Positions 5,544 to 54,631 of a stretch of 64,000 nucleotides of DNA are shown piece by piece. The notes under the pieces were generated by a model. The model had not been told where the DNA came from, did no database searches, and saw nothing but the letters and a program-made list of their open reading frames with translations. The stretch's first letter is position 1. Each line of letters begins with the position of its first letter. The position numbers and the translations under genes are program-made. The stretch is from Acidobacteriota bacterium (GTDB taxonomy: Bacteria > Acidobacteriota > UBA6911 > RPQK01 > JBOGJG01), in assembly GCA_050747825.1 (NCBI GenBank), contig JBOGJG010000300.1:17479-81478 (forward strand), given 5' to 3'.

Positions 5544-5558
5544 AAAATTCTCCTTTGT

Positions 5559-8514: not shown

Positions 8515-8536
8515 TGGTTTTTTACCTCAGCAGGGC

Positions 8537-11512: not shown

Positions 11513-11582
11513 TGAGTTTCAAGTTCCAAGTTTCAAGTTCCAAGCTCCAAGTTCCAAGTTGGAACTTGAAACTTGGAACTCG
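11512..11582. repeat. 70-bp near-perfect palindrome built from tandem 7-bp units (caagttc / caagttt)
   Basis: gagtttcaagttccaagtttcaagttccaagctccaagttccaagttggaacttgaaacttggaactc. It lies between the ferritin stop and the tctCB start. Confidence 0.7.
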
Positions 11583-11587
11583 CAAAA

Positions 11588-15513: not shown

Positions 15514-15666
15514 CGTGTCCAAGTATACCGTGGAAGCCCTGTCTGTGCGCGGGTCAAAGAGGGTATCGCAACGGGCGCTCCCTACACATATTGACATTCA
15601 CAAGAGTTGCGCGATTATCTATAGAATAACCAAAGAATAACAAAGGAACAAAAGAACCAAGGAACT

Positions 15667-17582: not shown

Positions 17583-19001
17583 ATGGCGCTGGTCTGGACG
17601 ATGGCCAATCAAAAGTACGACCTAATTGTAATCGGATCCGGGCCTGCGGGCGAGAAGGGCGCCGCTCAAGCTGCCTATTTCGGAAAACGGGTGGCTCTAA
17701 TAGAGAAGCAGCCGGTCTTGGGGGGAGCGGCCGCCAATACCGGGACCATTCCTTCCAAGACCCTGCGAGAGACTGCTCTGTATCTGTCGGGATTTCGGCA
17801 CCGAGGTCTCTACGGCATCGACTTATCGCTGAAAAAAGAGCTCTCGGTCTCCGACCTGATGTATCGAGAGCGAATCGTCCGGGAAACTGAACGCTCCAGA
17901 ATTGCAGAGAATCTAAAAAGGCATCGGGTCGATCTTTACATCGGCACTGCGTCATTCGTTGACGGCCATACCATTTCGGTGCGCCCCGAAAATGCGCCGG
18001 AAGTGCGGATTGAAGGAGAAGTCATCCTCATCGCCACCGGCTCCTACCCTTATCGTCCTCCTCAGTTCCCTTTCCACGATCCGCGGGTTTACGATTCAGA
18101 CACTATCCTGACCCTGCGCAGCATGCCTCGCACGGTGCTCACAGCAGGAGCGGGAGTGATCGGCTCAGAATATGCCTGCATCTTTTCAGCTCTCGGGATT
18201 GACGTCACGCTGGTGGACGGCCGGCCGGAACTATTGCCCTTCCTTGACGCCCAGGTCTCCTCTTGCCTGAAGTCCAGCATGGAGGCGGCGGGAGTGTGCA
18301 CGATGATGCCCGACCAGGTTGAGACAGTGGCACCGACCCCCGAGTATGTTGAAGTTCAACTGCAGTCAGGCAGCCGTGTTCGCGTGGATGCGATCCTGGT
18401 GGCTGCCGGTCGAAATGGAAACACGCAGGCGCTGGGGCTGGACAAAATCGGTGTTGAAACCGGTAAACGGGGGCACGTCGAAGTCAATGAGCGATACCAG
18501 ACCAGTCTTCCTCACGTTTACGCCGCCGGTGACGTCATCGGCTTCCCTGCCCTGGCCTCCACTTCCATGGAGCAGGCCAGGATTGCCATGGTCCACGCCT
18601 TTGACCTGAAATACAAAACCGACCTGACCCACATACTTCCGCTGGGGATCTATACGATCCCCGAGTGCTCCGCAGCCGGGGAGACCGAACAAAGCGCAAA
18701 GGAAAAGAACATACCGTATGTAGTCGGAAAGACTTTTTATGAGACCAATGCGCGGGGGCAGATCATTGGGGAGCAGGGCGCTTTTCTTAAATTAATTTTC
18801 CAACGGGAAGATCTGAAGGTTATCGGCGTTCATGTGATTGGTGAGCAGGCCACCGATCTTGTCCATGTGGGGCTTACGGCTATGTTGATGGGTGCGGGCG
18901 CCGATGTTTTTATCAACACCTGTTATAACTTTCCTACCCTGGGTGAAATGTACAAGTATGCGACTTACGACGCCCTGGGAAAGAAGGCGCAGTCGGCCTG
19001 A
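17583..19001 (+). CDS. sthA: Soluble pyridine nucleotide transhydrogenase (Si-specific NAD(P)+ transhydrogenase)
   Basis: YDLIVIGSGPAG...GGAAANTGTIPSK is the FAD/disulfide-oxidoreductase N-terminus. Strongly SthA/UdhA-like throughout. Confidence 0.8.
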   Translation: MALVWTMANQKYDLIVIGSGPAGEKGAAQAAYFGKRVALIEKQPVLGGAAANTGTIPSKTLRETALYLSGFRHRGLYGIDLSLKKELSVSDLMYRERIVRETERSRIAENLKRHRVDLYIGTASFVDGHTISVRPENAPEVRIEGEVILIATGSYPYRPPQFPFHDPRVYDSDTILTLRSMPRTVLTAGAGVIGSEYACIFSALGIDVTLVDGRPELLPFLDAQVSSCLKSSMEAAGVCTMMPDQVETVAPTPEYVEVQLQSGSRVRVDAILVAAGRNGNTQALGLDKIGVETGKRGHVEVNERYQTSLPHVYAAGDVIGFPALASTSMEQARIAMVHAFDLKYKTDLTHILPLGIYTIPECSAAGETEQSAKEKNIPYVVGKTFYETNARGQIIGEQGAFLKLIFQREDLKVIGVHVIGEQATDLVHVGLTAMLMGAGADVFINTCYNFPTLGEMYKYATYDALGKKAQSA

Positions 19002-21388: not shown

Positions 21389-21675
21389 TCAGCCAAGCCT
21401 CCCCGTTCCTTGAACTTCTTCAGCTCGTCGGGAGTAATTTCGAGGCTGACTACCTCAGGGTTCCCGGATTCCTCCATTCCGAATTCCGTTTCGACTCCTC
21501 GCGCCGCGGCTGAGCCAGTGACTTGGGCGCTTTTTTTCCCGCCTGAACTGCCTCCTGTCAATCCTGAGATCTCTGATTTCATTCTATAAAATATGACATT
21601 CCATTATAGTCCTCTTTTAGGTCCGACTTTCCCTGGCCTGGGTTGGCCTGGCCGTGATTATGGGCAGGTACCTGG

Positions 21676-23346
21676 TTATTGCTCTGGATTCCGATTGAAC
21701 TTGAAGTAAGGCAGCCGTACGCCCCGTATAAAGATCTGGTCGGCCCGGATGGACGGGGTGGCCTCAAAACCTTCGGATCCGGCTGCGGCCACCACGTCGT
21801 CCTGCTCGACCCCGTCACCGCTGATCCCCAGTCCGCCGATTAGCTCTCTGTCTCTGTAAAGCGGCGCGCTTCCCGGGAAGAATACGACGCTATTGATGTT
21901 GGCAGGATTCTGATCGTCCAACCCCTGCGAGCAGGGATTGGCAAAATCGCGCAGATAGAGGTCAAAGAACGGTCCCGGCGCTGTGCCGTCAATTCCGGGA
22001 GGATAGAAGGGCTGCGCTCCGAAGCTGATGGTGCGATTAGTTACAGCAGTGCCCGGAGGGACTTCCGGCAAATCCTGGGGGTGGAGTCTCTGGCTGCTGA
22101 AATATACGACATTACGGGACTTGGCCACGGCGACATCGATACTGAAGACAGTCGCATCTGCCATCCGGTAGAGCGCTAAAAGATTTCCCTCCAGATCGGA
22201 GACCGCGATGGCCATCCGCGCCCGGCTGCCCAGTGGAAGGCGAATGGCGGCCCGAGTTCGGTCGGCCTGCGCGATGGACTGCTCGACAATGCGCTGGACT
22301 TCTTCAGCCGACAGTTCGGGACTGCTCCCTGGATTTTCCGGACCTCCCACCAGCCAGCCGGCGGGCATCGTACTTCCCTCTCGGGGCGCAACCAGATAGC
22401 CTCCCGCAATCACTCCGGCGGAGGTCCCTGCCGGTTGAGTGGTCTGGCGAACAAAAGGAAGACGGACGCCGTCCAGAAAGACGGCTCCGGGTGGCGGGAC
22501 GCAGGGAAGCGGTCCGAATCCCGGGCCGCCCGAGAGGCTTCCTGCCAGCGCGGCATACTCGGCGTGATCCGGGGGAACTCCAAAAACCCCGATGCCCCCG
22601 ACCACCTGACAATCTTTGAAGAGCGGAATACCCCCTCCGTGGACCTGCTCCGGTTTCAGATCGAAAAGCTCCTCTTCCGGGATCTCTATGAGACGGCCAT
22701 TTTCAAGTCGGCCCGAAAATTTTCCGGTGCTGACGCCCGGCCCGCAGCCGCTCTGATCGAACGCATCACAGGGAAGTTCAGGACCCTGTGCCAGTCCCTC
22801 CTCTCTCAAAAAGGCCGCCAGCGAGCGGGCTCGAGGTACGAATTTCCCGGTGTTGAATTCTGTATTGAAGGAGCAGCCTCGATTGGTATTTTCAATACCA
22901 TAGAGAGCTCCGTTGGGCTGAAAAGGGATTCCAGGGGGAAAGTGAATCTGGCTAATAAAGCGCACGGTTCGGGAAGAGAGGGGAGCTTGATTATTGCTGA
23001 AAAAGGCGCCCGTGCGGGCCAGTGAAAGCGCCCGCTCGGCTATCTCCAGCGTCGCCTCAGGTTTTTGCCAGACCGCCAGAACGTTTCCCGCCCGATCCAC
23101 GACCACGACTGAATAGGTATTGGAATCCAGAGCGGTCACTGCAGCGCTCACCACAGCATCTACCTGCGCGCTGGTTAATGAGCCTGGATCGAAGTCGGTT
23201 GCCTGCTCCAGCGTCTGTCTTCCCGGCAGCGAAGACCGGCGTTTGAGAAACTCGTAAAGCTTTGACACCTGCAGAGTGAAATCCTGAGCCAAGGTGGGCG
23301 CAGCAACCAGAATACAGAGAGCAAGGACAAGCGAAAGACGGCTCAC
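21676..23346 (-). CDS. Secreted protein with two tandem GlcG/HbpS-like (DUF336) domains
   Basis: Signal peptide. Repeat 1 is ...AQVDAVVSAAVTALDS..YSVVVVDRAGNVLAVW. Repeat 2 is ...EEVQRIVEQSIAQADRTRAA....MAIAVSDLEGNLLALY. Confidence 0.5.
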   Translation of the reverse strand: MSRLSLVLALCILVAAPTLAQDFTLQVSKLYEFLKRRSSLPGRQTLEQATDFDPGSLTSAQVDAVVSAAVTALDSNTYSVVVVDRAGNVLAVWQKPEATLEIAERALSLARTGAFFSNNQAPLSSRTVRFISQIHFPPGIPFQPNGALYGIENTNRGCSFNTEFNTGKFVPRARSLAAFLREEGLAQGPELPCDAFDQSGCGPGVSTGKFSGRLENGRLIEIPEEELFDLKPEQVHGGGIPLFKDCQVVGGIGVFGVPPDHAEYAALAGSLSGGPGFGPLPCVPPPGAVFLDGVRLPFVRQTTQPAGTSAGVIAGGYLVAPREGSTMPAGWLVGGPENPGSSPELSAEEVQRIVEQSIAQADRTRAAIRLPLGSRARMAIAVSDLEGNLLALYRMADATVFSIDVAVAKSRNVVYFSSQRLHPQDLPEVPPGTAVTNRTISFGAQPFYPPGIDGTAPGPFFDLYLRDFANPCSQGLDDQNPANINSVVFFPGSAPLYRDRELIGGLGISGDGVEQDDVVAAAGSEGFEATPSIRADQIFIRGVRLPYFKFNRNPEQ

Positions 23347-24264: not shown

Positions 24265-24320
24265 TCTGTGAAATCCGTGGCCCATCTATGTTGGTGTATT
24301 TGTGAAATCGTGTGCTAAGT
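24265..24320. repeat. Family B repeat, partial copy (tgtgaaatccgtggccc) plus a degenerate direct repeat
   Basis: It matches the ccacggatttcacgg / ccgtgaaatccgtgg arms seen at 41346, 47128, 57074 and 61770. Confidence 0.4.
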
Positions 24321-29500: not shown

Positions 29501-30278
29501 GCGGGCGCTCACCTACAATCCTGATGGACTTCTGGATGGAGCCGTCAATCTGGCCATTGCCGGAAATCACGTTTATGTGACATGCGACCGCGGCCTGGTG
29601 ATTCTCAATTTCAAGGATCCACTGAAGCCGACCATTACGTCGGTCATTGGAGAGCCTTTCATCAAGAAACCCCGGTCGGTCGCGATTCAGTTCCGTTACG
29701 CCTTCCTAGCCGATTCCGAGGGCATCAAGGTCGTCGATGTGACCCTACCCGAAAAATCGCATCCAGTAGAAACAGGAAAATTCTTGCTCGAGGATGCGCG
29801 CGACATCTATATCGCCAGAACATACGCTTATATTGCAGCGGGCAAGCAGGGCCTGGTCATCCTGGACGTCGAACGTCCCGAATTTCCGCGCCACTTTCTG
29901 ACCTATAACGCTGAAGGCGAAATAAACGACGCCTGGCAGGTGAAGCTTGCCATGAGCAACGCCAGCTCGTTCGCTTATATCGCAGACGGCAAGAACGGGC
30001 TGCGCGTCCTTCAAATAACCTCACCGGAAAAAACCCCAGGGTTATTTGGCTACAGTCCGGAGCCCTCCCCGGAACTCATCGCCACCTATCACACTCATGG
30101 CCCCGCGGTGGCGGTAGCGAAGGGATTAGACCGCGATCGAGCCGTGGACGAGAGCGGAAACCAAATAGCGGTGTTTGGCCGGCGCGGCGCCCGCCCCTTC
30201 AACTTCCAGGAAATGCAGCGGCTGTATCTAAAGCAGGGCAAGGTCTACCAGGTAACAGATGAACTGCCCAGGAAATAG
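26598..30278 (+). CDS. Large multihaem c-type cytochrome (8 CxxCH plus 2 CxxxxCH motifs) fused to a C-terminal LVIVD-repeat beta-propeller
   Basis: Signal peptide. The motifs are CISAGCH, CTDCH, CGTAGCH, CTACH, CMVCH, CVDCH, CIDCH, CYACH, CFGCH and CTDCH. The C-terminal 450 aa carry repeated GL.I.DV / GLVIL.. motifs (LVIVD repeats). Confidence 0.8.
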   Translation: MRKVAALMMLTSAAVLAGFYPSAERLEGESWTEQPYKTWDEIRQPVDVSKTLLSQPPEEAQRKSAGCISAGCHTSVEPMHVSESVRLGCTDCHGGNADAIEKARAHVLPTNTEVFGSSANPVRAYTAWLRESPEFVRFVNPGDLRVLDQTCGTAGCHQDISFKVRKSMMTHGGMLWGAALYNNGAYPLKDTPFGESYAIDGTPQRIQTIPPPTPQETHDQGIIPYLDPLAQWGISQPGNVLRVFERGGKELIEIGIPDIEAEAGLPDKGLSIRGFGTLNRTDPVVLGLQKTRLMDPLLHMPGTNDHPGDYRASGCTACHVVYANDRSPAHSGPYARFGNGGMSVTSDPTIPRDEAGHPIRHRLTRSIPSSQCMVCHMHPGTNMLTTYFGYTWWDNETDGNHMYPVHERNLSAEEIDRIERANPEGSAVKGLWSDPEFLKNLTDLNPRLKHVQFADFHGHGWVYRAVFKRDRKGNLLDSEGRIVSFDDPGKFEKAVHLKDIHLEKGMHCVDCHFEQDVHGSGKLYNEPRAAIEIDCIDCHGSIYERASLKTSSFAAPPGGHDLSVLRTPWGRKRFEVQAEKIIQRSMVVEDLEWEIDQVLDTISPQSPSYNEKSRRAKTLQKDGKTWGGALDEDTLAHSNSSMTCYACHSSWMTSCFGCHLSMQANKMKTMLHNEGTITRNWTSYNYQVLRSDVFMLGVDGTVSAHRVAPVRSSSAVVVSSQTGNREWVYQTQQTVSAEGYSGQAFSTHVPHTVRSRETKGCTDCHVSTENDNNAIMAQLLLLGTNYTNFMGRYVYVGERENGFEAVAIAEREEPQAVIGSYLHRLAYPSKYEKHEEAHHELKEAYHHHGKDILSVQLRGEYLYTANGPEGLEIFDVAQIDHKGFSERMVTAPVSPLGQRFYVRSKYATAVASPSTLAVDPARTQRPENDEQAIAPIYAYIFFTDKYEGLILVNAATLLDGDPTNNFLERALTYNPDGLLDGAVNLAIAGNHVYVTCDRGLVILNFKDPLKPTITSVIGEPFIKKPRSVAIQFRYAFLADSEGIKVVDVTLPEKSHPVETGKFLLEDARDIYIARTYAYIAAGKQGLVILDVERPEFPRHFLTYNAEGEINDAWQVKLAMSNASSFAYIADGKNGLRVLQITSPEKTPGLFGYSPEPSPELIATYHTHGPAVAVAKGLDRDRAVDESGNQIAVFGRRGARPFNFQEMQRLYLKQGKVYQVTDELPRK

Positions 30279-30316
30279 AGGGACGTTCAATTTTGCAGGT
30301 GAACGTCCCTCTATTT
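30275..30316. terminator. Palindromic bidirectional terminator (atagagggacgttcaattttgcaggtgaacgtccctctattt)
   Basis: A perfect 14-bp stem between convergent cytochrome genes. Confidence 0.55.
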
Positions 30317-30321
30317 AGTCT

Positions 30322-31596
30322 CTACAAGACTTGCTGGATTTTGGCGAGTTGGGTGGCGAATTCGGAAGGGCTGTAACGTGAGGTGGATTGGAGCCACTCA
30401 TAGAGACGCGCGATTTGGGCGTCCAATAGTTCGTTTGTCTTTCCGGTGTTCTCTCTCCAGGACCTGAAAAGAGCATCCACACTCATGGTCGCCTGCTCGG
30501 CTGAGCGGATTCCTGATTGTGCGATGTTCTGGGCGTCGCCTGAAATGGCTCTCATGATCTGAAGCGCCATCGGCTCACCCAGGTTTGCGGCCTGCCATTG
30601 TGAGATCAGCGAATCCGTCAGATCGGCAAGCTGACGGGCCGTGCGGGCGATCTGGAGCCGGTTATCCGCCGGCTGCTGGAGGTGCTGTTTCAAGTTTTCC
30701 ACGAGCTGTTCCAACTGTTGTCTTTGTCCGCCCGAAATGGCGGTTACCGCATGGCGAAAGACGATATAGCGCGAAGGATTCCAGGGTGGGATTCCAGCGA
30801 TGCCCTTATACCCTCGGGCCTGCCGTTCGCTGGGAAGGACGAGGTTATGGTGGCAGGCGAAACATTCGAAATCCGCAAAATCAGGCCAACCCGCCCAGGA
30901 GGGCTGTTCCACTCGATGGGCCAACTGCTCCATGGACTCTCGCAGCGACACGGCCTGGCCGATGGCCCAGCGACGCAGGCCCTGCCAATCTCCTTCAGGC
31001 TCGTCCCAGTGACGGGGCATCAGGGCGCTAAACGTGTCCAACTCAAAGACCAGGTCGGGATGGCCTGCCGCAATCAGTTGGTGATTGACCGTTTTCTCCT
31101 GGTTTCCCAGGTGGCAGGACAGGCAGGTATCGGCGCGCACATCGAAATCTCTAGTGTCGTTCATTCCGGCACTGAGCGACTGCTGATGCGTCCAGTCGCG
31201 AGTGGTATGAGGTCCCAGCCATTGGGAGGCGGGTCCGTGACAACTTTCACAACCGACTCCGTCGGAAATCTCAAAGGTGCGCGCCTGGCGCTGCTGCGGC
31301 GCATTAGTGGTATGGCAGTCCAGGCACAGTGTTGCCGTGTGCGGCTCAGAAATTCCCAAGTTGCGAGCGATCTGCTGGGAGCGGGGCTCCAACAGCACTG
31401 CATAAGCTTTTGCATGCCCATCCTTAGTGGACCAGATTTGGTATTCGTTCTGCTTGATCCGGCCGCCGGTTCTGGGCCACACGCTTCCATGGCAATTACT
31501 GGAGGCGCAGGATCCTGCCCCGGTGAAATTCACCTGGTCCTGAGGAGATAAAAGAAGAAATCCGGCCAGCGCGATGGGAAGCAGCATTACCGCCAT
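30322..31596 (-). CDS. Multihaem c-type cytochrome (4 CxxCH plus 1 CxxxxCH)
   Basis: The motifs are CASSNCH, CLDCH, CESCH, CLSCH and CFACH, with a signal peptide. Confidence 0.8.
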   Translation of the reverse strand: MAVMLLPIALAGFLLLSPQDQVNFTGAGSCASSNCHGSVWPRTGGRIKQNEYQIWSTKDGHAKAYAVLLEPRSQQIARNLGISEPHTATLCLDCHTTNAPQQRQARTFEISDGVGCESCHGPASQWLGPHTTRDWTHQQSLSAGMNDTRDFDVRADTCLSCHLGNQEKTVNHQLIAAGHPDLVFELDTFSALMPRHWDEPEGDWQGLRRWAIGQAVSLRESMEQLAHRVEQPSWAGWPDFADFECFACHHNLVLPSERQARGYKGIAGIPPWNPSRYIVFRHAVTAISGGQRQQLEQLVENLKQHLQQPADNRLQIARTARQLADLTDSLISQWQAANLGEPMALQIMRAISGDAQNIAQSGIRSAEQATMSVDALFRSWRENTGKTNELLDAQIARLYEWLQSTSRYSPSEFATQLAKIQQVL

Positions 31597-31730
31597 GGAT
31601 CAAGGCAAAATATAACCGCCGTACAGGAGTAAGTCAAACTCCAAGATTTCACCCTTACCGGACACGAGAATTGCTATAATCCCGCCTACGAAGTAAACAC
31701 TTCGAAGTAAACACTTCGTGGCTTTTTTGC

Positions 31731-33404
31731 ATGATCATTCACGAACTACGGACGATTCAGGATCAGTTTGGCTACCTGCCGCGAGAGGAGCTAAAGAGGC
31801 TTTCTCAGAAGATCAATGTGCCGCTGTATGAGCTTCATGGAGTGGCCAGTTTCTTTCCCCACTTCCGGCTGGTGCGCCCGCCTGCAGTGGACATCGGCGT
31901 CTGCATGGATATGCCCTGCCATCTCCATGGCTGCGCTGGTCTGAAGAAGCAGATCGATCAAGCGGCGCAGGAAAGCAAACTTGACGTGGAGGTGCGGCCG
32001 GTCTCCTGTCTGGGACAGTGCGACCGGGCACCGGCCGTAGCTGTAAACGATCATATTTTTGCGCATCAATCCCCTCGGGAGACGCTGGCGGTTGTGACCG
32101 CTGCTTTGAAGGGCGCCAAGCTGGAGCATCAATCCTTTGGGGGGGGCGCCAGGCGCCATGCAGCCGATCCATACGACGGCGAGGGCGCGTACGGAGTAGT
32201 CAAAGATCTTCTCCAGTCGCAGGATTTCGAAGGCGTGCTGGAAAAGCTGAAATCGGCCAATCTAAGAGGGATGGGCGGAGCGGGCTTCCCTACCGGAGTG
32301 AAATGGGAGCTGGTTCGGAAGGCTGAGGGCGATGAGAAATATGTGGTCTGTAATGCCGACGAGAGTGAAGTTGGGACCATCAAAGATCGCGAGATCATGA
32401 AGGATCTTCCCCACCTTCTGGTCGAAGGGATGATCATCGCTGGACTGGTCACGGGCGCTCGCAAGGGCATCATCTATATCCGTCACGAATATCATGAGCA
32501 GGAAGAAGTACTGCGGGAGGAAATCATTCGAGCCAGGCACGCCCGTCTCGTGGGAGATGGACTCCTGGGCTCGAACCACACCTTCCATCTGGAAATTTTC
32601 GTCAGTCCGGGTGGCTACATCTGCGGCGAGGAAAGCGCTCTCTTGGAAGCCCTTGAGGGAAAGCGGGCCCAGCCGCGCAATAAGCCTCCTTTTCCGGTCA
32701 CTCAGGGCCTTTGGAACAAGCCCACTGTCATTAATAACGTTGAGACGTTCATTTATGTGCCACTGATCCTGAAAAGAGGCCCGGAATGGTTCCAATCCAG
32801 AGGGCGGAACGGGATTCCCGGGCTCAAGTTTGTGGGCGTCAGCGGCCACGTGAACAATCCGGGCGTCTTCGAGGTTGCGATGGGGACGCCTATTTCTGAA
32901 GTGATTTACGACCATGCCGGAGGAATCAGCCAGGGGAGGCGGATGAAAGCCTTTGCCCCTTCCGGGGCTTCCTCGGGTTTTCTCCCCGCCTCCATGGCGG
33001 ATGTCCCCATGGATTTCCAGAGCCTGGCTAAAGCCGGTTCAATGATGGGTTCGGGGGCGATAGTAGTGGCTGCTGAAGGGACCTGCCTTCTGGATCTGGC
33101 GCTAAATGCCGTCCGCTTCTTTCGCAACGAATCATGCGGAAAGTGTGTTCCCTGCCGGGTGGGCTCGCAAAAGCTGGTTGACATTCTCTTCCGGATCTCT
33201 CAGGAAGGCGGCACAAGAGAAGACCTTGAGGTGATTGAGCGTATGGCCGATACCCTGATGATGACTTCGATTTGTGGTCTGGGTCAGGTGGTCCCCAAGC
33301 CGATTACTTCCGTTATCCAGCATTTCCCCGGGGAAATCGAAGATCACATTGTAAATCAGACGTGCCCTTCGGGAGTGTGTTTTAGCGAGAGGAAAACAGG
33401 GTGA
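31731..33404 (+). CDS. NAD(H)-binding flavoprotein: fused NuoE-like [2Fe-2S] thioredoxin-like domain plus NuoF/HoxF-like FMN and [4Fe-4S] subunit
   Basis: The N-terminus has a C...C....C...C 2Fe-2S pattern (CMDMPC...CLGQC). GMGGAGFPTGVKW is the NADH-binding loop. ...ESCGKCVPCRVG is the N3 cluster. Confidence 0.85.
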   Translation: MIIHELRTIQDQFGYLPREELKRLSQKINVPLYELHGVASFFPHFRLVRPPAVDIGVCMDMPCHLHGCAGLKKQIDQAAQESKLDVEVRPVSCLGQCDRAPAVAVNDHIFAHQSPRETLAVVTAALKGAKLEHQSFGGGARRHAADPYDGEGAYGVVKDLLQSQDFEGVLEKLKSANLRGMGGAGFPTGVKWELVRKAEGDEKYVVCNADESEVGTIKDREIMKDLPHLLVEGMIIAGLVTGARKGIIYIRHEYHEQEEVLREEIIRARHARLVGDGLLGSNHTFHLEIFVSPGGYICGEESALLEALEGKRAQPRNKPPFPVTQGLWNKPTVINNVETFIYVPLILKRGPEWFQSRGRNGIPGLKFVGVSGHVNNPGVFEVAMGTPISEVIYDHAGGISQGRRMKAFAPSGASSGFLPASMADVPMDFQSLAKAGSMMGSGAIVVAAEGTCLLDLALNAVRFFRNESCGKCVPCRVGSQKLVDILFRISQEGGTREDLEVIERMADTLMMTSICGLGQVVPKPITSVIQHFPGEIEDHIVNQTCPSGVCFSERKTG

Positions 33405-35575
33405 GCGACGCAGGGAAGATCAATCTGACCATCGACGGAGTGCAGGTCAGCGCCAGCCCCGGCGCCACGATTTGGGAAGCCGCTCGCTCTGCCGGAATCG
33501 AAATCCCTGTTCTTTGCCACCAGTCCAATCTCGATCCCGTGGGTGTTTGCCGGGTGTGCGCGGTCGAAGTCCAGGGAGCCCGGGTTTATGCAGCCGCCTG
33601 CGTGCGCGCTGTCGAAAACGGGATGGTCGTCTCTACCGGTAATGCGCGATTGGAACAGTCCAGAAAAACGCTGATCGAGCTGCTGCTGTCAGACCATCCG
33701 GCTCCCTGTGCCCGCCACCAGAAATTCGGCGATTGCGAGTTGGAAGTCCTGGCCGAAAAGACTGGGGTCACTCAGCCCGCTTTTAACTCGCGGACGGCAT
33801 CCAAAGGGGCTGACGTTTCCAACCTCAGTATCTCCGTTGACCACAGCGCCTGCATCGTTTGCGATCGCTGTGTGCGGGCTTGCACGGACCTTAAGCACAA
33901 CAATGTAATCGGCCGTATGGGCAAGGGATATCTCACCAGCATTTCCTTTGATGATGACCGGCCTATGGGGGAGTCGAGCTGCGTCAATTGTGGAGAATGC
34001 ATGGTTTCCTGTCCCACCGGAGCGCTGACGTCCGGTGAAATGGTGGGGACCAGAATGGATTCCGGCGATGTGCTCAGTCCCGAAGATCTCTTGCGCTATC
34101 CCATCTTTGCGGGTATCTCCAGCGCATTTCTGGCACGAAATACCGGAGGCATAGTCAGGCGCCATTATCGAAAAGGCGAAATCATCTGCCGCGAAGGAGA
34201 ATACGGGTCCACGGCGTTTTATATCCTGCAGGGCCAGGTGGATGTTTTTCTGGGCACCAGTGTCGCCCACGTCGCCAAGCGAAGAGATTCCGGCATGGGT
34301 TGGTTCAAGAAGATGACCAGCGTACTGGTGTCCCGTACGGAAGATCCGCGGAGCGGCGAAAAGAGACAGAGCTATATTCCTATTGACGCTCCGGTTGATC
34401 TTTCCTACGATCGGCCGGTCGCGCAACTGGGCGAGGGCGACCTGTTCGGGGAGATGACCTGTCTGAACTTCTATCCCCGATCGGCGACGGTGCGCGCTGC
34501 TGAAGACTGCATCGTCCTCGAGATGCTGCGCAACGTCCTTCAGATCCTCCAGAAAAACCGCGATTTCCAGGCCCATATGGAAGAGGTCTACAGGAAGCGC
34601 GCCCTGGATAATCACCTGCGCAGCGTTCCCATCTTTCAAAACCTCCCGTCGGATTTTCTGGAATATCTAAGAGATCGCGTACAACTGAAGCGGTTTGAGG
34701 CAGGAGAGGTCATCTGCCGGCAGGGAGAGCCGGCGGATGCCTTCTATCTGGTGCGGATTGGGCACGTGAAGGTTTCTCAAGCTCGCCCTGGAGGTGAAAT
34801 GGTCCTGGCTTACCTGGCTAAGGGCCTGTACTTTGGCGAGATTGGTCTTCTGGCGAGAGGCGAGAGGACGGCCACCTGCACGGCGCTCGATCACGTGGAG
34901 GTTGTAAAAATCTCGCAGCGGGAATTCGACCAGATGCTGTCGCAATTTCCGGATATTCAGACCGAGCTCCAAAGAGTGGCCGGCCAGCGCCTGGAGTCCA
35001 ATGAAAAGCAGAGCGAAATGCTGAAGACGGTACCGCTGGATGATTTCCTGTCCCAGGGTTTGATGCAAGCTCAGAATCTCCTTGTTCTGGACCTGGAGAG
35101 TTGCGTGCGCTGTGATGATTGCGTGCGCGCCTGTGGCGCCGCTCACGACGGGTTTACCCGCCTGGTTCGCGAGGGCCTTCGCTTCGATAAATACCTGGTG
35201 GCTACATCCTGCCGGCAATGTAGAGATCCGCTCTGCATGGTCGGTTGTCCGGTGGGAAGCATACGGCGCCAGGATTCTCTGGAAATCATCATCGAGGATT
35301 GGTGTATCGGATGCGGCTTGTGCGCGCAGCAATGCCCTTACGGGAATATCAACCTGCATGAGTTTCCGGTCCGCGAGAGGAACCCGGAAACGGGAGCGTT
35401 CGAAACCGTTCTTAAGAAGAAGGCCACAGTCTGTGACCTTTGCACCGATCACAAGGAGCCAAGCTGCGTCTACGCCTGCCCGCACAATGCGGCTCATCGT
35501 GTAGACCCCCGGACATTCTTCGATCTGCAGCTCCAGCCGACCGGCTTGGCTTCTAAGGAGCCGAGCTCATCGTGA
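33401..35575 (+). CDS. HoxU/NuoG-N-terminal-like Fe-S protein with two inserted cNMP-binding domains and a C-terminal 2x[4Fe-4S] ferredoxin module
   Basis: The N-terminal 215 aa have a 2Fe-2S motif (CHQ...CRVCAVEV), then HP..C...C (His-ligated cluster), then CIVCDRCVRAC and CVNCGECMVSCP. Two cNMP domains follow: ...GEIICREGEYGSTAFYILQG...FGEM....RSATVRA and ...GEVICRQGEPADAFYLVRIG...FGEIGLL...RTATCTA. The C-terminal Cys motifs are CVRCDDCVRAC, CRQCRDPLCMVGCP, CIGCGLCAQQCP and CDLCTD....CVYACP. Confidence 0.8.
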   Translation: MSDAGKINLTIDGVQVSASPGATIWEAARSAGIEIPVLCHQSNLDPVGVCRVCAVEVQGARVYAAACVRAVENGMVVSTGNARLEQSRKTLIELLLSDHPAPCARHQKFGDCELEVLAEKTGVTQPAFNSRTASKGADVSNLSISVDHSACIVCDRCVRACTDLKHNNVIGRMGKGYLTSISFDDDRPMGESSCVNCGECMVSCPTGALTSGEMVGTRMDSGDVLSPEDLLRYPIFAGISSAFLARNTGGIVRRHYRKGEIICREGEYGSTAFYILQGQVDVFLGTSVAHVAKRRDSGMGWFKKMTSVLVSRTEDPRSGEKRQSYIPIDAPVDLSYDRPVAQLGEGDLFGEMTCLNFYPRSATVRAAEDCIVLEMLRNVLQILQKNRDFQAHMEEVYRKRALDNHLRSVPIFQNLPSDFLEYLRDRVQLKRFEAGEVICRQGEPADAFYLVRIGHVKVSQARPGGEMVLAYLAKGLYFGEIGLLARGERTATCTALDHVEVVKISQREFDQMLSQFPDIQTELQRVAGQRLESNEKQSEMLKTVPLDDFLSQGLMQAQNLLVLDLESCVRCDDCVRACGAAHDGFTRLVREGLRFDKYLVATSCRQCRDPLCMVGCPVGSIRRQDSLEIIIEDWCIGCGLCAQQCPYGNINLHEFPVRERNPETGAFETVLKKKATVCDLCTDHKEPSCVYACPHNAAHRVDPRTFFDLQLQPTGLASKEPSSS

Positions 35576-36483
35576 TTATCGATCGAAGCAATAAGCCCTG
35601 GATCGTGGCCAGCATCGTCATTTTCCTGGTTTCGGCAGTACTCTACATCCCTTACAGCATCTACGCCATCCCGGCGCCTTCGGGCGGAAGCTGGCCTGGC
35701 TTGATTTACGCCTTTCTCGGCACAGGCATGATGCTCTTTGCGCTGCTGCTGGGTTTACGGAAAAAGTACCCAACTCTGCGAGTGGGAAGGCTGCACGCCT
35801 GGATGAAAGGACATGTCTGGCTTGGACTCTTGAGCTTTCCCATTATTCTCTTTCACGCGGGATTTGCTCTGGGCGGGCCGCTCACGACGGTGTTAATGGT
35901 TTTGTTCGGTATCGTCGTTTTCAGCGGCCTCTTCGGGATCGTTCTTCAGCAGTATATTCCTGGTCTGATGACAGAGCAGATTTCGATGGAAACGATTTTC
36001 GAGCAGGTGGATGACATTCTGGCTCAGCTCCGCCAGGAAGCGGATGCATTCGTGCAGGCCGCCTTATCGCGCGAATCCGAAGAGCCTTTTGTCATGGAGG
36101 CACTGGGAGGAGGGACCGAGTCTCCACTGGCGCGCAACCGCTACTCGAGTGATCAGTCGGAACTGAGCAGAGGCCGGCGCGTCTTGGACGACTTTTATCA
36201 GCGTGAAGTCCGGCCGTTTCTTCACGATCAGGCCGGACCGGACAGCCGATTCGCCTCCGAGCAGAAGTCCAACGTTGTCTTTGAACAGATGCGAAAAGTG
36301 CTCCCCGGCTCGTTTCACGAAACACTGGCCTCTCTGGCCGATATCGTGGAAGAGAGACGGCAACTGGCGCGCCAGGTGAAGCTGCATTATCTTCTTCACG
36401 GCTGGCTCTTCATACACGTCCCCCTGTCTATGGCGCTGATGGGGCTGGCGGCAGTTCATGCGGTCATAGCACTCAGGTACTGA
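35572..36483 (+). CDS. Integral membrane protein (about 5 TM) with conserved His in TM helices; candidate b-type haem membrane anchor
   Basis: Hydrophobic helices. His residues in helices include GHVWLGLL, ILFHAGF and HYLLHGWLFIHVP. 4-bp overlaps on both sides (operon). Confidence 0.45.
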   Translation: MIIDRSNKPWIVASIVIFLVSAVLYIPYSIYAIPAPSGGSWPGLIYAFLGTGMMLFALLLGLRKKYPTLRVGRLHAWMKGHVWLGLLSFPIILFHAGFALGGPLTTVLMVLFGIVVFSGLFGIVLQQYIPGLMTEQISMETIFEQVDDILAQLRQEADAFVQAALSRESEEPFVMEALGGGTESPLARNRYSSDQSELSRGRRVLDDFYQREVRPFLHDQAGPDSRFASEQKSNVVFEQMRKVLPGSFHETLASLADIVEERRQLARQVKLHYLLHGWLFIHVPLSMALMGLAAVHAVIALRY

Positions 36484-36487
36484 GCAG

Positions 36488-37831
36488 ATGGCGCGAAAGG
36501 GAAAAACCACCAAGCAGCTTGCCAAGCGCATCGACATCAACTACTTCAAGCGGCTGCACCCGTTTCGCCGGAAAAAGCGGTATGCAAGCTATGTGGCCCT
36601 GGCACTAGCTGCGGCGTGGCTCATCGCAAGCGCTCTGGTGGGGGACGAAGGCGTTTTCAATCCCGGACCTGTCTCACGCCCCCACGCCTTTATTGAGGAA
36701 GACTGCTCCTTTTGCCATACCGGAGCCGAGGAGAACCGCTTTCTTCACCCCGTTACCGATGGGGCCTGCCAGAGCTGCCATGCCGGCCCGCTTCATCACC
36801 GCAATCAGGTCTTTGCCGGACATACGGGAAGCCAGCCCTCCTGCGGCAGTTGTCACCAGGAACATCAGGGACGCTCGGCTGACCTGGTTTTTATGCAGGA
36901 CAAGAACTGCCTGCAGTGCCACCGTTCCCTCCAGGTGGACGAGACACTCGTTGCTGCATCCAGTCCGGATTTGCCTGAATTCCTGGCGCGGCCTCCGCAA
37001 GGTTACGCCCGGGCCATCTCCAGCTTCGAGAGTGATCACCCGGAATTCCGTTTCATTCGCGACCAGATGGAAGATCCTGCGCAGATTAAGCTCAATCACC
37101 AGGTGCACCTGAGGCCGGACCTGCCCGCTCCCGAAGGTCCGGTTCAACTCGAATGCCAGTCGTGCCATAGAATCGATGCTCAGGGGGCTTATATGGAGCC
37201 GGTCAATTTCGAACGGGACTGCCAGTCCTGTCATCCCCTGGCTTTTGACGAACGGATTTTTGAAGAAGCGCCACATGAGGACCCTGAATTTGCGGAGGCT
37301 TTTGTCCGCACGGCTTTTTCCAAGTACGCCGGTGAGCATCCTGATGAATGGCGCCGGCCCTCGGACTGGCATCCGGCGCGCAATCTCTCCAGCCTCAGAA
37401 GAATGGTCGAAGAGGCTCCTCGAGATCTCCCGGACTGGCTGGAAAGAGAAGTTGGGAAGGCGCGCCAGCTCCTGTTTTCCCAAAAATGCCAGGAGTGCCA
37501 CGTCATGCAGGACCTGCAGCAGGAGGTCCCTGCAGTTGTCCAGCCTCGCATTCCAGATCGATTCCTCGGCCACAGCCGTTTTGATCACCAGGCACATCGA
37601 ATGCTCGAGTGTTCGTCCTGCCACGAACAGGCGCTTCAAAGCAGTCGAACCGAAGACATTCTCATTCCCGGCCGGGAGGACTGCCTGCACTGCCACAACA
37701 CTTCCACTGGAGCCCCGGCTGAGTGTGTAACTTGTCACGCTTATCACTCACAGACCAAAAATTACCAGCCAGGACGTCTCAGGATCAACGATATCGTCGG
37801 TGGGTCACAGCAAGGAGAATCACGTGAATGA
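36488..37831 (+). CDS. Membrane-anchored decahaem c-type cytochrome
   Basis: One N-terminal TM helix. Ten CxxCH motifs (CSFCH, CQSCH, CGSCH, CLQCH, CQSCH, CQSCH, CQECH, CSSCH, CLHCH, CVTCH). Confidence 0.8.
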   Translation: MARKGKTTKQLAKRIDINYFKRLHPFRRKKRYASYVALALAAAWLIASALVGDEGVFNPGPVSRPHAFIEEDCSFCHTGAEENRFLHPVTDGACQSCHAGPLHHRNQVFAGHTGSQPSCGSCHQEHQGRSADLVFMQDKNCLQCHRSLQVDETLVAASSPDLPEFLARPPQGYARAISSFESDHPEFRFIRDQMEDPAQIKLNHQVHLRPDLPAPEGPVQLECQSCHRIDAQGAYMEPVNFERDCQSCHPLAFDERIFEEAPHEDPEFAEAFVRTAFSKYAGEHPDEWRRPSDWHPARNLSSLRRMVEEAPRDLPDWLEREVGKARQLLFSQKCQECHVMQDLQQEVPAVVQPRIPDRFLGHSRFDHQAHRMLECSSCHEQALQSSRTEDILIPGREDCLHCHNTSTGAPAECVTCHAYHSQTKNYQPGRLRINDIVGGSQQGESRE

Positions 37832-38633
37832 AAAGCAGCCGTTGAGAGGTCAGAAGGCCCTGGTAACGGGGTCGAGTTCGGGAATAGGTAAGGCCATCGC
37901 TAAATCTCTCGCATTTGCAGGAGCTTCGGTCGTAGTAAACTCCCGCAGCCAGCCGGATAAAGGCGCGCGGCTGGCCCAAGAAATTTGCGAGGCAGGAGGA
38001 GAGGGCATTCATATCCAGGCCGACGTCGGCCGGGAGGACGAGGTCAAGACTCTCTTTCGCAAAATGCTGGATGAGTTCGGGACGATTGACATTCTCGTCA
38101 ATAACGCCGGGCTGCAACGCGACGCGAATCTGGTGGATATGACCCTGGAGCAATGGAATACCGTCCTTTCGACCAATCTCACCAGTCAGTTTCTCTGTGC
38201 TCGTGAGGCCGTCAAGGAATTCCAGCGCCGGGGTGTTGTCCCTTCGATCTCAAGAGCGGCTGGGAAAATCATCTGTATCAGTTCGGTGCACGAGATCATT
38301 CCATGGGCTGGACACAGCAACTATGCGGCTTCAAAGGGGGGTGTGATGCTCTTTATGAAGAGCATCGCCCAGGAACTGGCGCCTCACAAGATCCGCGTCA
38401 ACAGCATCGCCCCGGGCGCGATTAAGACTCCCATCAATCGGGAGGCCTGGGAGACGCCTGAGGCTGAACGGGCTCTGCTCAAGCTGGTTCCCTATCAGAG
38501 GGTTGGAGACCCGGAAGACATCGGCTCAGCGGCGGTCTGGCTGGCTTCCGACGACTCCGACTACGTTACCGGAACCAGCTTGATCGTAGACGGAGGCGCG
38601 TGTCTCTATCCCGAATTTGCTCACGGAGGCTGA
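37823..38633 (+). CDS. Short-chain dehydrogenase/reductase (glucose-1-dehydrogenase-like)
   Basis: TGSSSGIGKAIA is the Rossmann motif. NNAG and YAASK form the catalytic Tyr-x3-Lys motif. The GTG start is taken just inside the stop of the upstream cytochrome. Confidence 0.8.
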
Positions 38634-38642
38634 AGTCAAAAC

Positions 38643-54348: not shown

Positions 54349-54631
54349 AAACTCCCTCCTCGACAATTCAAGTTGTTCAAATCGAATTACAAAATAAGCC
54401 GCGGGTGGTAAGGCACCCGGAGACGATATATGCAATCTCAGTACCTATTCTTTGGAGAGCTCGCTGAGTCGCGCTGGTTTAACGGTAAAGCTCCAAGAGT
54501 GCCGCCGTTTTTCGCCTGAGTCTCCCGATGAGCCAAGGGACGTGCGCTTGTCCAAAATTCCGAACTTTGCGCTTCTGGAATACAGGTTTTTGAACTTGAA
54601 TAAGAGACTAATAGGTGAACGGCGATGACCC

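Follow-up and report, generated by a model that had tools for sequence, protein, structure and literature searches.

What an iron-sulfur (Fe-S) protein with two cyclic nucleotide-binding domains between its cluster motifs might do is the question raised by a gene in the window, a stretch of 64,000 nucleotides from an Acidobacteriota bacterium (Table 1). The preferred answer, which is given a probability of roughly 0.5, is that the 724-aa focal protein serves as the central cytoplasmic subunit of a cNMP-switched, membrane-spanning NADH:cytochrome c electron-export complex encoded by four genes.

Table 1. Features of the focal gene and its surroundings in the window
Feature	Size or residues	Position (nt)	Strand	Basis or remarks
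Pyr_redox_2 FAD/NAD(P) oxidoreductase		17583..19001	+	13/84 loci
HbpS-like (haem-binding) secreted protein		21676..23346	-	14/84 loci; also L001-L003
CarboxypepD_reg-domain protein	748 aa	24312..26558	+	29/84 loci
Secreted multihaem protein with LVIVD repeats	1226 aa	26598..30278	+	28/84 loci
Cytochrome c554-like multihaem protein	424 aa	30322..31596	-	Pfam Cytochrome_C554; 4 CxxCH and 1 CxxxCH, signal peptide; divergent, same position in 66/84 loci
NuoE-NuoF fusion	557 aa	31731..33404	+	Pfam 2Fe-2S_thioredx, Complex1_51K, SLBB, NADH_4Fe-4S; NCBIfam nuoF_fam 463 bits; upstream of focal gene in 79/84 loci
Focal Fe-S protein	724 aa	33401..35575	+	HoxU-like module, tandem cNMP-binding domains, four-cluster polyferredoxin
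HoxU/NuoG-N/HydA-N-like module	aa 1-212	33401..34036	+	phmmer against PDB, Cys map
Linker between input module and CNB-A	aa 213-228	34037..34084	+	poor conservation
cNMP-binding domain A (CNB-A)	aa 229-376	34085..34528	+	Pfam; AF2 pLDDT 80-96
cNMP-binding domain B (CNB-B)	aa 409-505	34625..34915	+	Pfam, best stretch aa 430-515
CNB-B C-helix and connector	aa 506-562	34916..35086	+	AF2 helix; conservation
HydN/DmsB-like polyferredoxin	aa 563-705	35087..35515	+	NCBIfam HydN aa 564-705, 62.7 bits
Membrane protein	303 aa	35572..36483	+	five TM helices; unannotated
Decahaem cytochrome c	447 aa	36488..37831	+	10 CxxCH, one N-terminal TM anchor; 74/84 loci

Iron-sulfur modules of the focal protein

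The focal ORF has a GTG start with GAGAGGA just ahead of it, and Pfam together with a Cys map showed that the domain set claimed for it in the preliminary description is real. Pfam recognized Fer2_4 (aa 6-81), NADH-G_4Fe-4S_3 (aa 88-125) and a Fer4 dicluster (aa 146-210) in the N-terminal part, cNMP_binding (E 2e-39, 133.7 bits vs a cut-off of 27.5) as two domains, of which an insert divides the first, and Fer4 motifs at aa 604-700. Conservation was counted in a residue census of 155 unique relatives with pairwise identities of 55-98%.

Searching the PDB by phmmer related the N-terminal module to HydA1 (7q4v, E 4e-43) as well as to FdsA and NuoG. The Cys residues of its [2Fe-2S] site (C39/50/53/67) and of two CxxCxxCxxxC ([4Fe-4S]) motifs, at aa 151-161 and 194-204, are conserved in the relatives, and this part of the NuoG-N/HoxU pattern claimed earlier stands, whereas the canonical His-ligated [4Fe-4S] site does not, as its second Cys is missing family-wide. 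The N5-like site reads H99-x3-C103-x2-H106-x5-C112 in place of HxxxCxxCx5C, with H106 falling opposite the second Cys in the alignment to HydA1, and the corresponding position is occupied by Gln in 121 relatives, Glu in 17, His in 7 and Cys in none. The focal protein also scores under the HoxU equivalog cut-off (174.7 vs 333). The linker that follows, with a mean top-residue frequency of 0.48 vs 0.8-0.87 in the domains either side, is likely a flexible tether joining the input module to CNB-A.

The four further ferredoxin motifs reported after the cNMP-binding domains were located at aa 568-578, 604-616, 635-645 and 678-693. Their 16 Cys, which would hold four [4Fe-4S] clusters, are present in 155/155 relatives at 15 positions and in 154/155 at C681.

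Some relatives are devoid of the entire N-terminal module while their partner genes are unchanged; standalone cNMPx2-polyferredoxin proteins occur in L155, L139 and L140, where the membrane protein and decahaem genes still follow, and in P0185 NuoE-NuoF-Fer2-Fer4-cNMP-Fer4 are all found on one chain. The focal architecture is therefore a fusion of two modules, and the retained partners tie the sensor to the polyferredoxin-haem conduit. The same relatives rule out a sensor located inside a HoxU protein, making the former term "interrupted" misleading, since the sensor sits at the junction of the fused input module and a core resembling PtdE, which is discussed below.

Tandem cNMP-binding domains and the cyclase neighbourhood

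Two complete cNMP-binding domains with Crp-like phosphate-binding cassettes (PBCs) had been claimed, and both cassettes are intact: PBC-A is FGEMTCLNFYPRSATV (aa 349-364, nt 34445-34492) and PBC-B is FGEIGLLARGERTATC (aa 478-493, nt 34832-34879). G350 and E351 were found in 155/155 relatives, R360 in 149/155, E480 in 154/155 and R489 in 148/155, so that 95-100% of these relatives retain the phosphate-gripping Gly-Glu and Arg-Ser/Thr-Ala residues in both domains and the reading as degenerate linkers fails. Of four standalone variants examined, three retain these residues too, CNB-B of P0162 being degenerate.

The tandem shares two consecutive CNBs, canonical PBCs and the B/C helix joint with the regulatory subunits of PKA and PKG. 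Foldseek matched it to the fold of PKG I-beta and PKA-R with a probability of 1.0 (best structural matches 4z07, 2qvs and 1rgs), and phmmer gave one continuous alignment to PKA-R from PBC-A through CNB-B. Different from these proteins, the focal tandem lies covalently between two Fe-S modules and its output is no kinase, CNB-A is enlarged by a conserved insert of about 50 aa (aa 285-338, with AHV and IPIDAxVDL), and a conserved Cys is located within or beside each PBC (C354 and C493). Beyond CNB-B, a long helix (aa 517-542 in the AF2 model) is followed by the connector FLxQGLMxAQxLLxLDL, which runs directly into the first cluster motif of the polyferredoxin; its conservation at aa 546-562 is 0.86 and it is retained in the standalone variants too, making the C-helix and connector a candidate transducer element. 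The AF2 model of the whole protein (pLDDT 72, pTM 0.56) has little confidence in its Fe-S parts and in how the domains are arranged, so that it fixes neither the mutual placement of the Fe-S modules nor whether the CNB tandem holds the two cluster chains further apart than electrons can tunnel, which was counted against the preferred reading.

As previously stated for the window, no cyclase domain was detected among its ORFs of at least 200 aa. Among 166 related loci, a class III cyclase adjoins the operon in 33, in several arrangements: it is the next downstream gene in 26 loci, lies 197 bp upstream in L046 and takes the form of an FHA-GAF-cyclase in L005. Clusters with a cyclase-adjacent member number 15 of 83 at 90% identity and only 4 of 13 at 70% identity, indicating that the linkage is partly inherited by descent. 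About 80% of the related loci showed no cyclase within 9-10 kb. This, the inherited linkage and the lack of a cyclase in the window were counted against the preferred reading.

These data bear on the alternative that the complex operates as proposed but that neither cAMP nor cGMP gates electron flow, the CNB tandem being a fixed scaffold, a dimerisation element or the sensor of some ligand that is not a cyclic nucleotide, as in CooA, NtcA, CprK and trypanosome PKA-R. Domains of the CRP/CNB fold are established binders of diverse ligands, and the scarcity of cyclases around the operon, together with C354, C493 and the insert in CNB-A, hints in the same direction. However, CNB domains for other ligands usually lose the Arg, which is preserved here along with the other phosphate-gripping residues, and the cyclases recur beside the operon in several independent arrangements, by which this alternative is rendered unlikely. 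Under the preferred reading, the tandem would bind a nucleotide, presumably cAMP or cGMP.

The operon and its known counterparts

The focal gene is the second in a translationally coupled operon of NuoE-NuoF, focal, membrane protein and decahaem genes, in which the focal start overlaps the preceding stop by 4 nt and the focal stop overlaps the next start by another 4 nt. All four genes stand in this order at about 75 of 84 genome loci, and most of 80 metagenome loci show it as well. Judged by its domains, the NuoE-NuoF fusion is a flavoprotein for NADH/FMN input that bears [2Fe-2S] and [4Fe-4S] sites, and identity with the bifurcating HydB type was rejected because extra ferredoxin domains are absent. 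In addition to its helices, the membrane protein has about 140 aa that form a cytoplasmic helical domain, and its His pairs H81/H95 and H282/H296, each with a spacing of 14, as well as H272 and H276 are invariant. No Pfam Ferric_reduct match was obtained in this protein, which is regarded as a putative dihaem cytochrome b. The haem domain of the decahaem cytochrome is periplasmic.

The closest counterpart by description is the ptdABCDEFG cluster, with PtdE, PtdF and PtdG of function stated as unknown, which encodes a 4Fe-4S cyclic-nucleotide-binding protein, then a transmembrane protein resembling ferric reductases and a decahaem protein of the periplasm, with more multihaem proteins and an FAD/NAD(P) oxidoreductase in the vicinity (bioRxiv 10.1101/2023.11.21.568154). 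The gene order is shared with the window, and the standalone variants of L155 and L139 fit even more closely; because the membrane and decahaem partners persist where the HoxU/NuoEF part is missing, the core matches PtdE/F/G as described. The window differs in the fused N-terminal HoxU-like [2Fe-2S] and 2x[4Fe-4S] module and the upstream NuoE-NuoF gene, no pentahaem-plus-porin pair was recognised in it, and the hosts are soil Acidobacteriota instead of marine Proteobacteria, Nitrospirales and Planctomycetes.

The HoxEFU diaphorase of bidirectional [NiFe] hydrogenases and the NuoEFG N-module of complex I likewise combine a NuoE/NuoF flavoprotein with a HoxU/NuoG-N Fe-S subunit that has one [2Fe-2S] and two ferredoxin-type [4Fe-4S] sites. 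In contrast, the focal operon fuses NuoE to NuoF and is devoid of hydrogenase, molybdopterin and NuoB/D/I partners, and the focal protein lacks the second Cys of the His-ligated motif and gains two CNBs and four clusters. The proposed wire logic of cytoplasmic or peripheral Fe-S protein, membrane b-type cytochrome and periplasmic multihaem cytochrome c is the same as in the Tmc/Hmc complexes of sulfate reducers and in FdnGHI and hydrogenase-cytochrome b systems, and the focal polyferredoxin is HydN/FdnH-like. The focal subunits are not homologous to Tmc/Hmc, as no TmcB/C or HmcE/F matches were found with Pfam and NCBIfam, and the focal complex would take its input from NADH via a flavoprotein and has a second-messenger sensor built in. 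Compared with NOX, DUOX, STEAP and cytochrome b561, the 303-aa protein is distinguished by its five helices, cytoplasmic helical domain and six invariant His, with a multi-cluster Fe-S protein as proposed donor and a decahaem as proposed acceptor.

The dihaem b protein might instead be a quinone-reactive subunit like FdnI, HyaC and NarI, in which case the complex would be a regulated, alternative oxidoreductase of the NADH:quinone or quinol:cytochrome c type and not a direct conduit from NADH to the periplasm; this is considered decidedly unlikely.

The architecture is not rare: relatives occur in at least 558 species-level genomes, nearly all of uncultured Acidobacteriota, and 1736 clusters at 50% identity match the focal protein at E<1e-30. 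Its annotation is generic. The database entry identical to the focal protein (from an Acidobacteriota MAG) is named "cyclic nucleotide-binding domain-containing protein" and nothing else, and no paper describing the function of the four-gene system was found. The four-gene machine is widespread but unstudied in soil Acidobacteria.

Proposed electron path and its direction

The four-gene machine probably takes electrons from NADH and delivers them to haem proteins on the other side of the membrane. NADH would be oxidised at the FMN of the NuoE-NuoF fusion, and the electrons would enter the HoxU-like module through its [2Fe-2S] and then its two [4Fe-4S] clusters before passing to the C-terminal chain of four. 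The polyferredoxin would dock at the cytoplasmic face of the novel five-helix protein, whose predicted b haems would mediate transmembrane transfer to the anchored decahaem and from there to further secreted multihaem proteins. Between input module and polyferredoxin, the CNB tandem would serve as the allosteric switch. Once cAMP (or cGMP) is bound, the CNB-B C-helix and connector may reorient and shift the flexibly tethered input module, thereby opening or closing the electron path. In many relatives a neighbouring CHASE2-type class III cyclase would supply the nucleotide. Flow from NADH to the outside bypasses the quinone pool, runs with the membrane potential and conserves no energy, for which reason tight, fast control would make sense. 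If true, a respiratory wire may be under the direct control of a second messenger. The domain make-up, the conserved ligand and cluster residues, the conserved operon, its modularity and the cyclase neighbourhood are established; haem b binding, flow direction, nucleotide binding, the nucleotide's identity and the gating are inferred.

Inward flow, in which periplasmic donors would pass electrons via multihaem proteins, b haems and the Fe-S chain to NAD+ as a reverse-electron-flow module for lithotrophy, could draw on the established reversibility of HoxEFU-type modules and on the adjoining c554-like and large secreted multihaem proteins as electron gatherers, but it appears very improbable on energetic grounds, as electrons would move against the membrane potential, transfer from c-type haems to NAD+ would be uphill in redox potential, and the operon has no coupling-ion subunit. 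Least probable is a focal protein that is mainly a signalling device, one in which the clusters would sense redox or the NADH/NAD+ balance and thereby tune how cNMP is bound or sequestered, and not carry a metabolic electron flux. Redox-sensing Fe-S proteins are known, the focal protein has no enzymatic output domain, and Pfam gave a weak LdpA Fe-S domain match below threshold (20.7 bits vs a cut-off of 27.6). A sensor, however, would need far less than seven or eight clusters in a pair of standard wire modules, translational coupling, and a flavoprotein, transmembrane haem protein and decahaem as obligate partners.

In L001 and L002 the Pyr_redox_2 gene lies directly 3' of the Fe-S/cNMP gene and the membrane and haem genes are absent, meaning that the Fe-S protein can also work with a soluble partner; this arrangement was counted against the preferred reading. 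The MscS-cNMP protein at 19898-21388, formerly grouped with the focal gene, is real but has no tie to it, and with 0/84 loci it was rejected as a functional partner and taken as an unrelated neighbour. The LVIVD multihaem protein, which had no relative in the PDB, recurs among the neighbours, invariably together with the CarboxypepD_reg protein, and may be a terminal partner.

Domain architecture and operon of the Fe-S/cNMP protein

The preliminary description of the Fe-S/cNMP open reading frame is largely confirmed. The gene is real, opening with a GTG codon directly preceded by GAGAGGA, and Pfam matches together with the Cys map bear out the [2Fe-2S] site, the two N-terminal [4Fe-4S] motifs and the four further motifs that had been described for its product (Table). 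Residue conservation was counted over 155 unique family members with pairwise identities of 55-98%, 145 of which possess the N-terminal module. The [2Fe-2S] site (C39/C50/C53/C67, pattern Cx10Cx2Cx13C) is kept in all 145, as are the module's other Cys residues, including those of the two conserved ferredoxin-type CxxCxxCxxxC(P) motifs (C151-C161 and C194-C204, the latter followed by P205). At the C-terminus, 16 Cys fall into four motifs (568-578, 604-616, 635-645 and 678-693) in the four-cluster pattern of the ~150-aa HydN/DmsB domain; 15 of them are invariant (155/155) and the other, C681, is found in 154/155.

What did not hold is the canonical His-ligated [4Fe-4S] motif. The N5/FS4C site, as this position is called in HoxU and the NuoG N-terminus, reads H99-x3-C103-x2-H106-x5-C112 rather than HxxxCxxCx5C, with H106 opposite the second Cys in an alignment to HydA1 (PDB 7q4v), and among the 155 unique relatives the position is occupied by Gln (121), Glu (17) or His (7) and never by Cys. 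At the altered site a cluster may be held by two ligands other than Cys, or it may have been lost. In the formate dehydrogenase structure 7vw6 the motif is absent entirely.

Several known identities were weighed for the protein and its flavoprotein partner. The input half would work like the HoxEFU/NuoEFG modules, and a NuoE/NuoF-type flavoprotein adjoins the gene, but HoxU or NuoG proper is rejected on account of the altered N5 motif, scores well under the cut-offs (HoxU 174.7 bits vs 333, NuoG 118 vs 470) and the missing catalytic partners, no hydrogenase HoxYH, formate dehydrogenase or NuoBCDI being found among the 35 large window ORFs scanned. HydN or DmsB proper, to which the C-terminal cluster pattern would point, falls short as well (62.7 bits vs 260 and 48.2 vs 214, respectively). 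The flavoprotein, which comprises thioredoxin-like [2Fe-2S], FMN, SLBB and [4Fe-4S] domains, stops right after its NADH_4Fe-4S domain (aa 455-539) with no ferredoxin domains added, and an electron-bifurcating HydABC/Nfn-type enzyme was rejected since the NuoF part has no extra Fe-S domains. A CRP/FNR-type regulator can be dismissed, as the CRP model covers the sensor part alone and no HTH family appears among the Pfam matches.

The gene is second in a set of four that are translationally coupled. Scans of 30200-38800 for promoters and terminators returned sites no more numerous than in shuffled sequence. No Pfam or NCBIfam model covers the family of the third gene product, a membrane protein in which the His pairs H81/H95 (TM3) and H282/H296 (TM5) are invariant in 54 homologues. 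Four His on two TM helices at a spacing of 13-14 residues is the arrangement of dihaem cytochromes b, and the protein is assigned as a putative member of that class. Two further His (H272 and H276), where the last helix ends on the cytoplasmic side, are invariant too and could provide a third site for a metal or haem, or one for docking. A sequence search of the PDB with the decahaem cytochrome gave only weak cytochrome c7 matches.

Table. Coordinates of the operon, of features of the Fe-S/cNMP protein, and of genes nearby or at related loci (L numbers, genome or metagenome contigs); the last column counts occurrences by tblastn of window genes against 84 genome loci
Feature	Position	Description	Loci (of 84)
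Pyr_redox_2 flavoprotein	17583-19001		13
MscS-cNMP channel	19898-21388 (-)		0
HbpS-like protein	21676-23346		14
CarboxypepD_reg companion of LVIVD protein	24312-26558	~700 aa	29
LVIVD multihaem protein	26598-30278	1226 aa	28
c554-like cytochrome	30322-31596	divergent	66
NuoE-NuoF fusion	31731-33404 (+)	557 aa; 4-nt overlap with Fe-S/cNMP gene	79
Fe-S/cNMP gene	33401-35575 (+)	724 aa	
Membrane protein	35572-36483 (+)	303 aa; 4-nt overlap with Fe-S/cNMP gene	77
Cytochrome c (decahaem)	36488-37831 (+)	447 aa; 10 CxxCH; one N-terminal anchor helix	74
GH63/MGH1-like glycoside hydrolase	38643-41294		18
Outer-membrane beta-barrel	47202-50570 (-)	1122 aa	
Outer-membrane beta-barrel	50983-54435 (-)	1150 aa	
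Fer2_4	aa 6-81	Pfam	
NADH-G_4Fe-4S_3	aa 88-125	Pfam	
N5/FS4C site	aa 99-112 (33695-33736)		
Fer4 dicluster	aa 146-210	Pfam	
cNMP_binding (PF00027), two domains		Pfam; E 2e-39, 133.7 bits vs cut-off 27.5	
Fer4 motifs	aa 604-700	Pfam	
HoxU, FeFe-hydrogenase-A6 N-terminus, NuoG matches	aa 7-219	NCBIfam; far under equivalog cut-offs	
CRP match	aa 418-554	NCBIfam; sensor part only; far under equivalog cut-off	
HydN match	aa 564-705	NCBIfam; far under equivalog cut-off	
CNB-A insert	aa 285-338 (34253-34414)	~50 aa	
C263	34187-34189		
C354	34460-34462		
C439	34715-34717		
C493	34877-34879		
L166 cyclase	3496-5757 (-)	CHASE2-Guanylate_cyc, 753 aa	
L046 cyclase	5248-7110 (-)	CHASE2-cyclase	
L005 cyclase	7653-9278 (+)	FHA-GAF-cyclase	
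L030 cyclase	13501-15864 (-)		
L001 Pyr_redox_2 flavoprotein	10188-11603		
L002 Pyr_redox_2 flavoprotein	6767-8182		
L167 neighbours (glycoside hydrolase, glucose-6-phosphate dehydrogenase)	4063-6738; 20930-22172		
L169 neighbours (glycoside hydrolase, glucose-6-phosphate dehydrogenase)	4069-6762; 20879-22129		

The tandem cNMP-binding domains

The two cNMP-binding (CNB) domains had been described as complete, each with its phosphate-binding cassette (PBC), and both the PF00027 score and the intact key residues agree. Either cassette is canonical in sequence, FGEMTCLNFYPRSATV in CNB-A (G350, E351, R360, S361, A362) and FGEIGLLARGERTATC in CNB-B (G479, E480, R489, T490, A491). Degenerate cassettes are contradicted by the Arg and Glu positions, since residue conservation among the 155 relatives reaches 95-100% (G350/E351 in 155, R360 in 149, E480 in 154, R489 in 148).

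In the AF2 model, built from 120 sequences, the CNB domains reach pLDDT values of 80-96, the Fe-S regions are poor, and the overall pLDDT and pTM are 72 and 0.56. A Foldseek search against the PDB matched, at a probability of 1.0, PKG I-beta (4z07) over its tandem CNB-A/B along with numerous PKA-R structures, while phmmer aligned a single stretch running from PBC-A through CNB-B to the PKA-R of Toxoplasma and yeast, and on these matches the sensor is classed as a PKA-R-like tandem. A solved structure with the whole architecture was not found in the PDB. As to whether the tandem separates the cluster-bearing modules, the domain arrangement in the model is of low confidence and the spacing of the two modules is not given by it.

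Internally, conservation is lowest (0.48) at aa 213-228, the residues that lead from the HoxU-like module into CNB-A. It is near its highest (0.86) in the connector between the CNB-B C-helix and the first cluster motif (FLxQGLMxAQxLLxLDL, aa 546-562), which standalone proteins retain as well. This pattern fits an input module held by a flexible tether and a polyferredoxin coupled rigidly, in mechanical terms, to CNB-B.

Four conserved Cys lie inside the CNB domains (C263, C354, C439 and C493), of which C354 (149/155) and C493 (144/155) are located in or directly after the PBCs and could act as redox-sensitive thiols adjoining the ligand pockets. CNB-A also contains a conserved insert (AHV...IPIDAxVDLxY), of low confidence in the model, which is shared by the standalone variants.

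Family, modularity and genomic neighbourhood

The architecture proved common and not rare: an exhaustive search of 50%-identity representatives returned 1736 clusters at E<1e-30, and at least 558 carriers turned up when a single genome was scanned for each species. The exact protein is already public as 'MAG: cyclic nucleotide-binding domain-containing protein [Acidobacteriota bacterium]', and the best 120 relatives (713-747 aa, query coverage 96-100%) bear generic names only, 119 of them showing 61-70% identity and the remaining one being the exact match. Nearly all of the best 80 carriers are uncultured Acidobacteriota (Terriglobia, Acidoferrales/Acidiferrales, Vicinamibacterales, Bryobacterales), a few being labelled Planctomycetota or Methylomirabilota. 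The family is thus a common one, but no known function for it was found in the literature.

Many representatives match aa 219-708 only, that is, the CNB tandem and the polyferredoxin, some with other N-termini, and standalone sensor-polyferredoxin proteins of ~500-560 aa occur among them. In the metagenome scan, ~10 of 80 loci had neither NuoEF nor the HoxU-like module, for example L155 (497 aa), L139 (526 aa) and L140 (841 aa, with a different N-terminus); at loci without NuoEF, the cNMPx2-polyferredoxin gene is followed by the membrane protein gene and then, where the contig extends, by the decahaem gene. Since these loci keep the membrane and decahaem genes, the conserved core consists of sensor, polyferredoxin, putative dihaem b and decahaem, with the HoxU-like module and NuoEF as one of several input modules. 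The protein, earlier taken for a HoxU interrupted by cNMP-binding domains, is therefore more aptly viewed as a diaphorase-type input module fused to a PtdE-like sensor-polyferredoxin. A variant at two loci labelled Planctomycetes (L001 and L002) places a Pyr_redox_2 flavoprotein right after the Fe-S/cNMP gene and is devoid of the membrane and decahaem genes. The window encodes a homologue of this flavoprotein 14 kb upstream.

One library protein, P0185 (1483 aa), apparently joins NuoE, NuoF, Fer2, Fer4, cNMP and Fer4 in this order on a single chain, which would support a physical complex of NuoEF and the Fe-S protein. An apparent fusion of the same kind was noticed in a 1309-aa ORF among the loci of the residue census, and P0133, another library protein, seems by eye to carry an FHA-like N-terminal region on a sensor-polyferredoxin variant.

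The MscS-cNMP channel, which had been grouped with the Fe-S protein, is real according to Pfam, including its C-terminal cNMP-binding domain, but its tie to the operon does not stand, and it was rejected as a part of the system with no occurrence at the 84 loci. The LVIVD protein is secreted, contains 8-10 haem motifs besides LVIVD repeats and is always paired with the CarboxypepD_reg protein; a sequence search gave it no PDB relative, and a literature search on LVIVD multihaem proteins led to an unrelated paper. The LVIVD protein may represent the terminal enzyme or an outer-membrane module of the system.

The absence of an obvious cyclase from the window was upheld, since Pfam and domain scans of its large ORFs did not find a cyclase domain. 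At related loci, class III cyclase genes were detected by domain HMM in 33 of 166; at 26 of these 33, the next gene downstream, under 1 kb away, encodes the cyclase. This neighbourhood lends indirect support to cAMP or cGMP as the ligand that the tandem may bind. The position of the cyclase varies: convergent and first past the decahaem gene in L166, 197 bp upstream of NuoEF in L046, 771 bp downstream and in the same orientation in L005, directly beside the operon in L030, and ~3 kb upstream in L114 and L138. Among three long contigs examined, the cyclase lies ~10 kb off, past the LVIVD genes, in L169, and none was within reach past the LVIVD/CarboxypepD_reg genes in L167 and L168. After dereplication, 15/83 clusters at 90% identity, 7/40 at 80% and 4/13 at 70% include a cyclase-adjacent member, and the Fe-S proteins of cyclase-bearing loci show mutual identities down to 58%. 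Linkage to a cyclase is a minority pattern, partly inherited by descent. The varied positions, together with the 26-43% identity of the other cyclases to the main type, argue for a functional tie between cyclase and operon. The main type features Lys (LDKYIGD) and Thr (SWTVMGD) at the substrate-specifying positions, residues that we take, from CyaC-type enzymes, to suggest an adenylate cyclase. A FecR-domain gene adjoins the cyclase in L166.

Proposed electron path and its control

Every step beyond these sequence features is one that we infer. NADH would be oxidised at the FMN of NuoEF, and electrons would then move onto the N-terminal module (one [2Fe-2S] and two [4Fe-4S] clusters), along the four-cluster polyferredoxin chain, through a cytoplasmic-side haem b (H81/H282) and a periplasmic-side haem b (H95/H296), to the decahaem and then to the c554-like and LVIVD multihaem proteins. 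This topology follows from the positive-inside rule and from the maturation of c-type haem domains in the periplasm. Outward flow would be favoured by both the redox drop and the membrane potential, skipping the quinone pool and conserving no energy, for which reason the system resembles a regulated vent for reducing equivalents, or else a feed for reductions in the periplasm or outside the cell.

Control would be exerted by cAMP or cGMP, with the CNB tandem setting whether the input module and the polyferredoxin sit within tunnelling distance or, alternatively, whether the polyferredoxin docks on the membrane protein. The second-messenger gating of electron flow that had been suggested appears plausible, and both the conserved cassettes and the cyclases nearby lend it weight. 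The full reading, that cAMP from a membrane CHASE2-sensor cyclase binds the PKA-R-like tandem, shifts the cluster chains and opens a quinone-independent NADH-to-periplasm 'electron valve' in soil Acidobacteria, is tentative, with a probability of roughly one in three.

In respiratory and redox-balancing chains, control is generally ascribed in the main to gene expression, substrate supply and supercomplex assembly, and the literature searches turned up no characterised second-messenger receptor that forms part of an Fe-S wire. Gating, if true, would constitute a new mode of bioenergetic control, would make this the first bioenergetic complex with electron tunnelling gated allosterically by a nucleotide, would assign a function to a protein that is very common in uncultured soil Acidobacteria under the name 'cyclic nucleotide-binding domain-containing protein', and would link extracytoplasmic sensing by CHASE2-cyclases to the export of reducing equivalents to secreted multihaem proteins and, through it, to soil extracellular redox chemistry. 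What appears new is an uncharacterised regulatory principle and a putative membrane haem-protein family without any annotation, both within known kinds of system.

Literature searches combining cNMP domains with HoxU, NuoG, NuoF, multihaem or 4Fe-4S proteins yielded a single preprint (bioRxiv 10.1101/2023.11.21.568154), which names a 'ptdABCDEFG' cluster and states its function as unknown. In it, a cNMP-binding 4Fe-4S protein (PtdE), a ferric-reductase-like membrane protein (PtdF) and a periplasmic decahaem (PtdG) follow one another, an order into which the second to fourth operon genes fit, as matched by description and not by sequence. PtdA and PtdB of that cluster are a pentahaem protein with a beta-sandwich and a porin (bioRxiv 10.1101/2023.11.21.568154); the window has the c554-like protein (4+1 haem motifs) and the CarboxypepD_reg protein nearby, and no porin family was recognised. 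The Tmc/Hmc and FdnHI systems are alike in overall logic but their subunits are not homologous, and NOX/DUOX offer the closest analogy for a transmembrane electron carrier switched by a second messenger.

The glycoside hydrolase recurs beside the cluster, which in L167 and L169 is also flanked by glucose-6-phosphate dehydrogenase; these neighbours could reflect a tie to carbohydrate-derived reducing power or merely conserved gene order. The tandem giant outer-membrane beta-barrels further downstream (CarboxypepD_reg and OMP_b-brl_4) are a usual feature of Acidobacteriota and have no relation to the operon.
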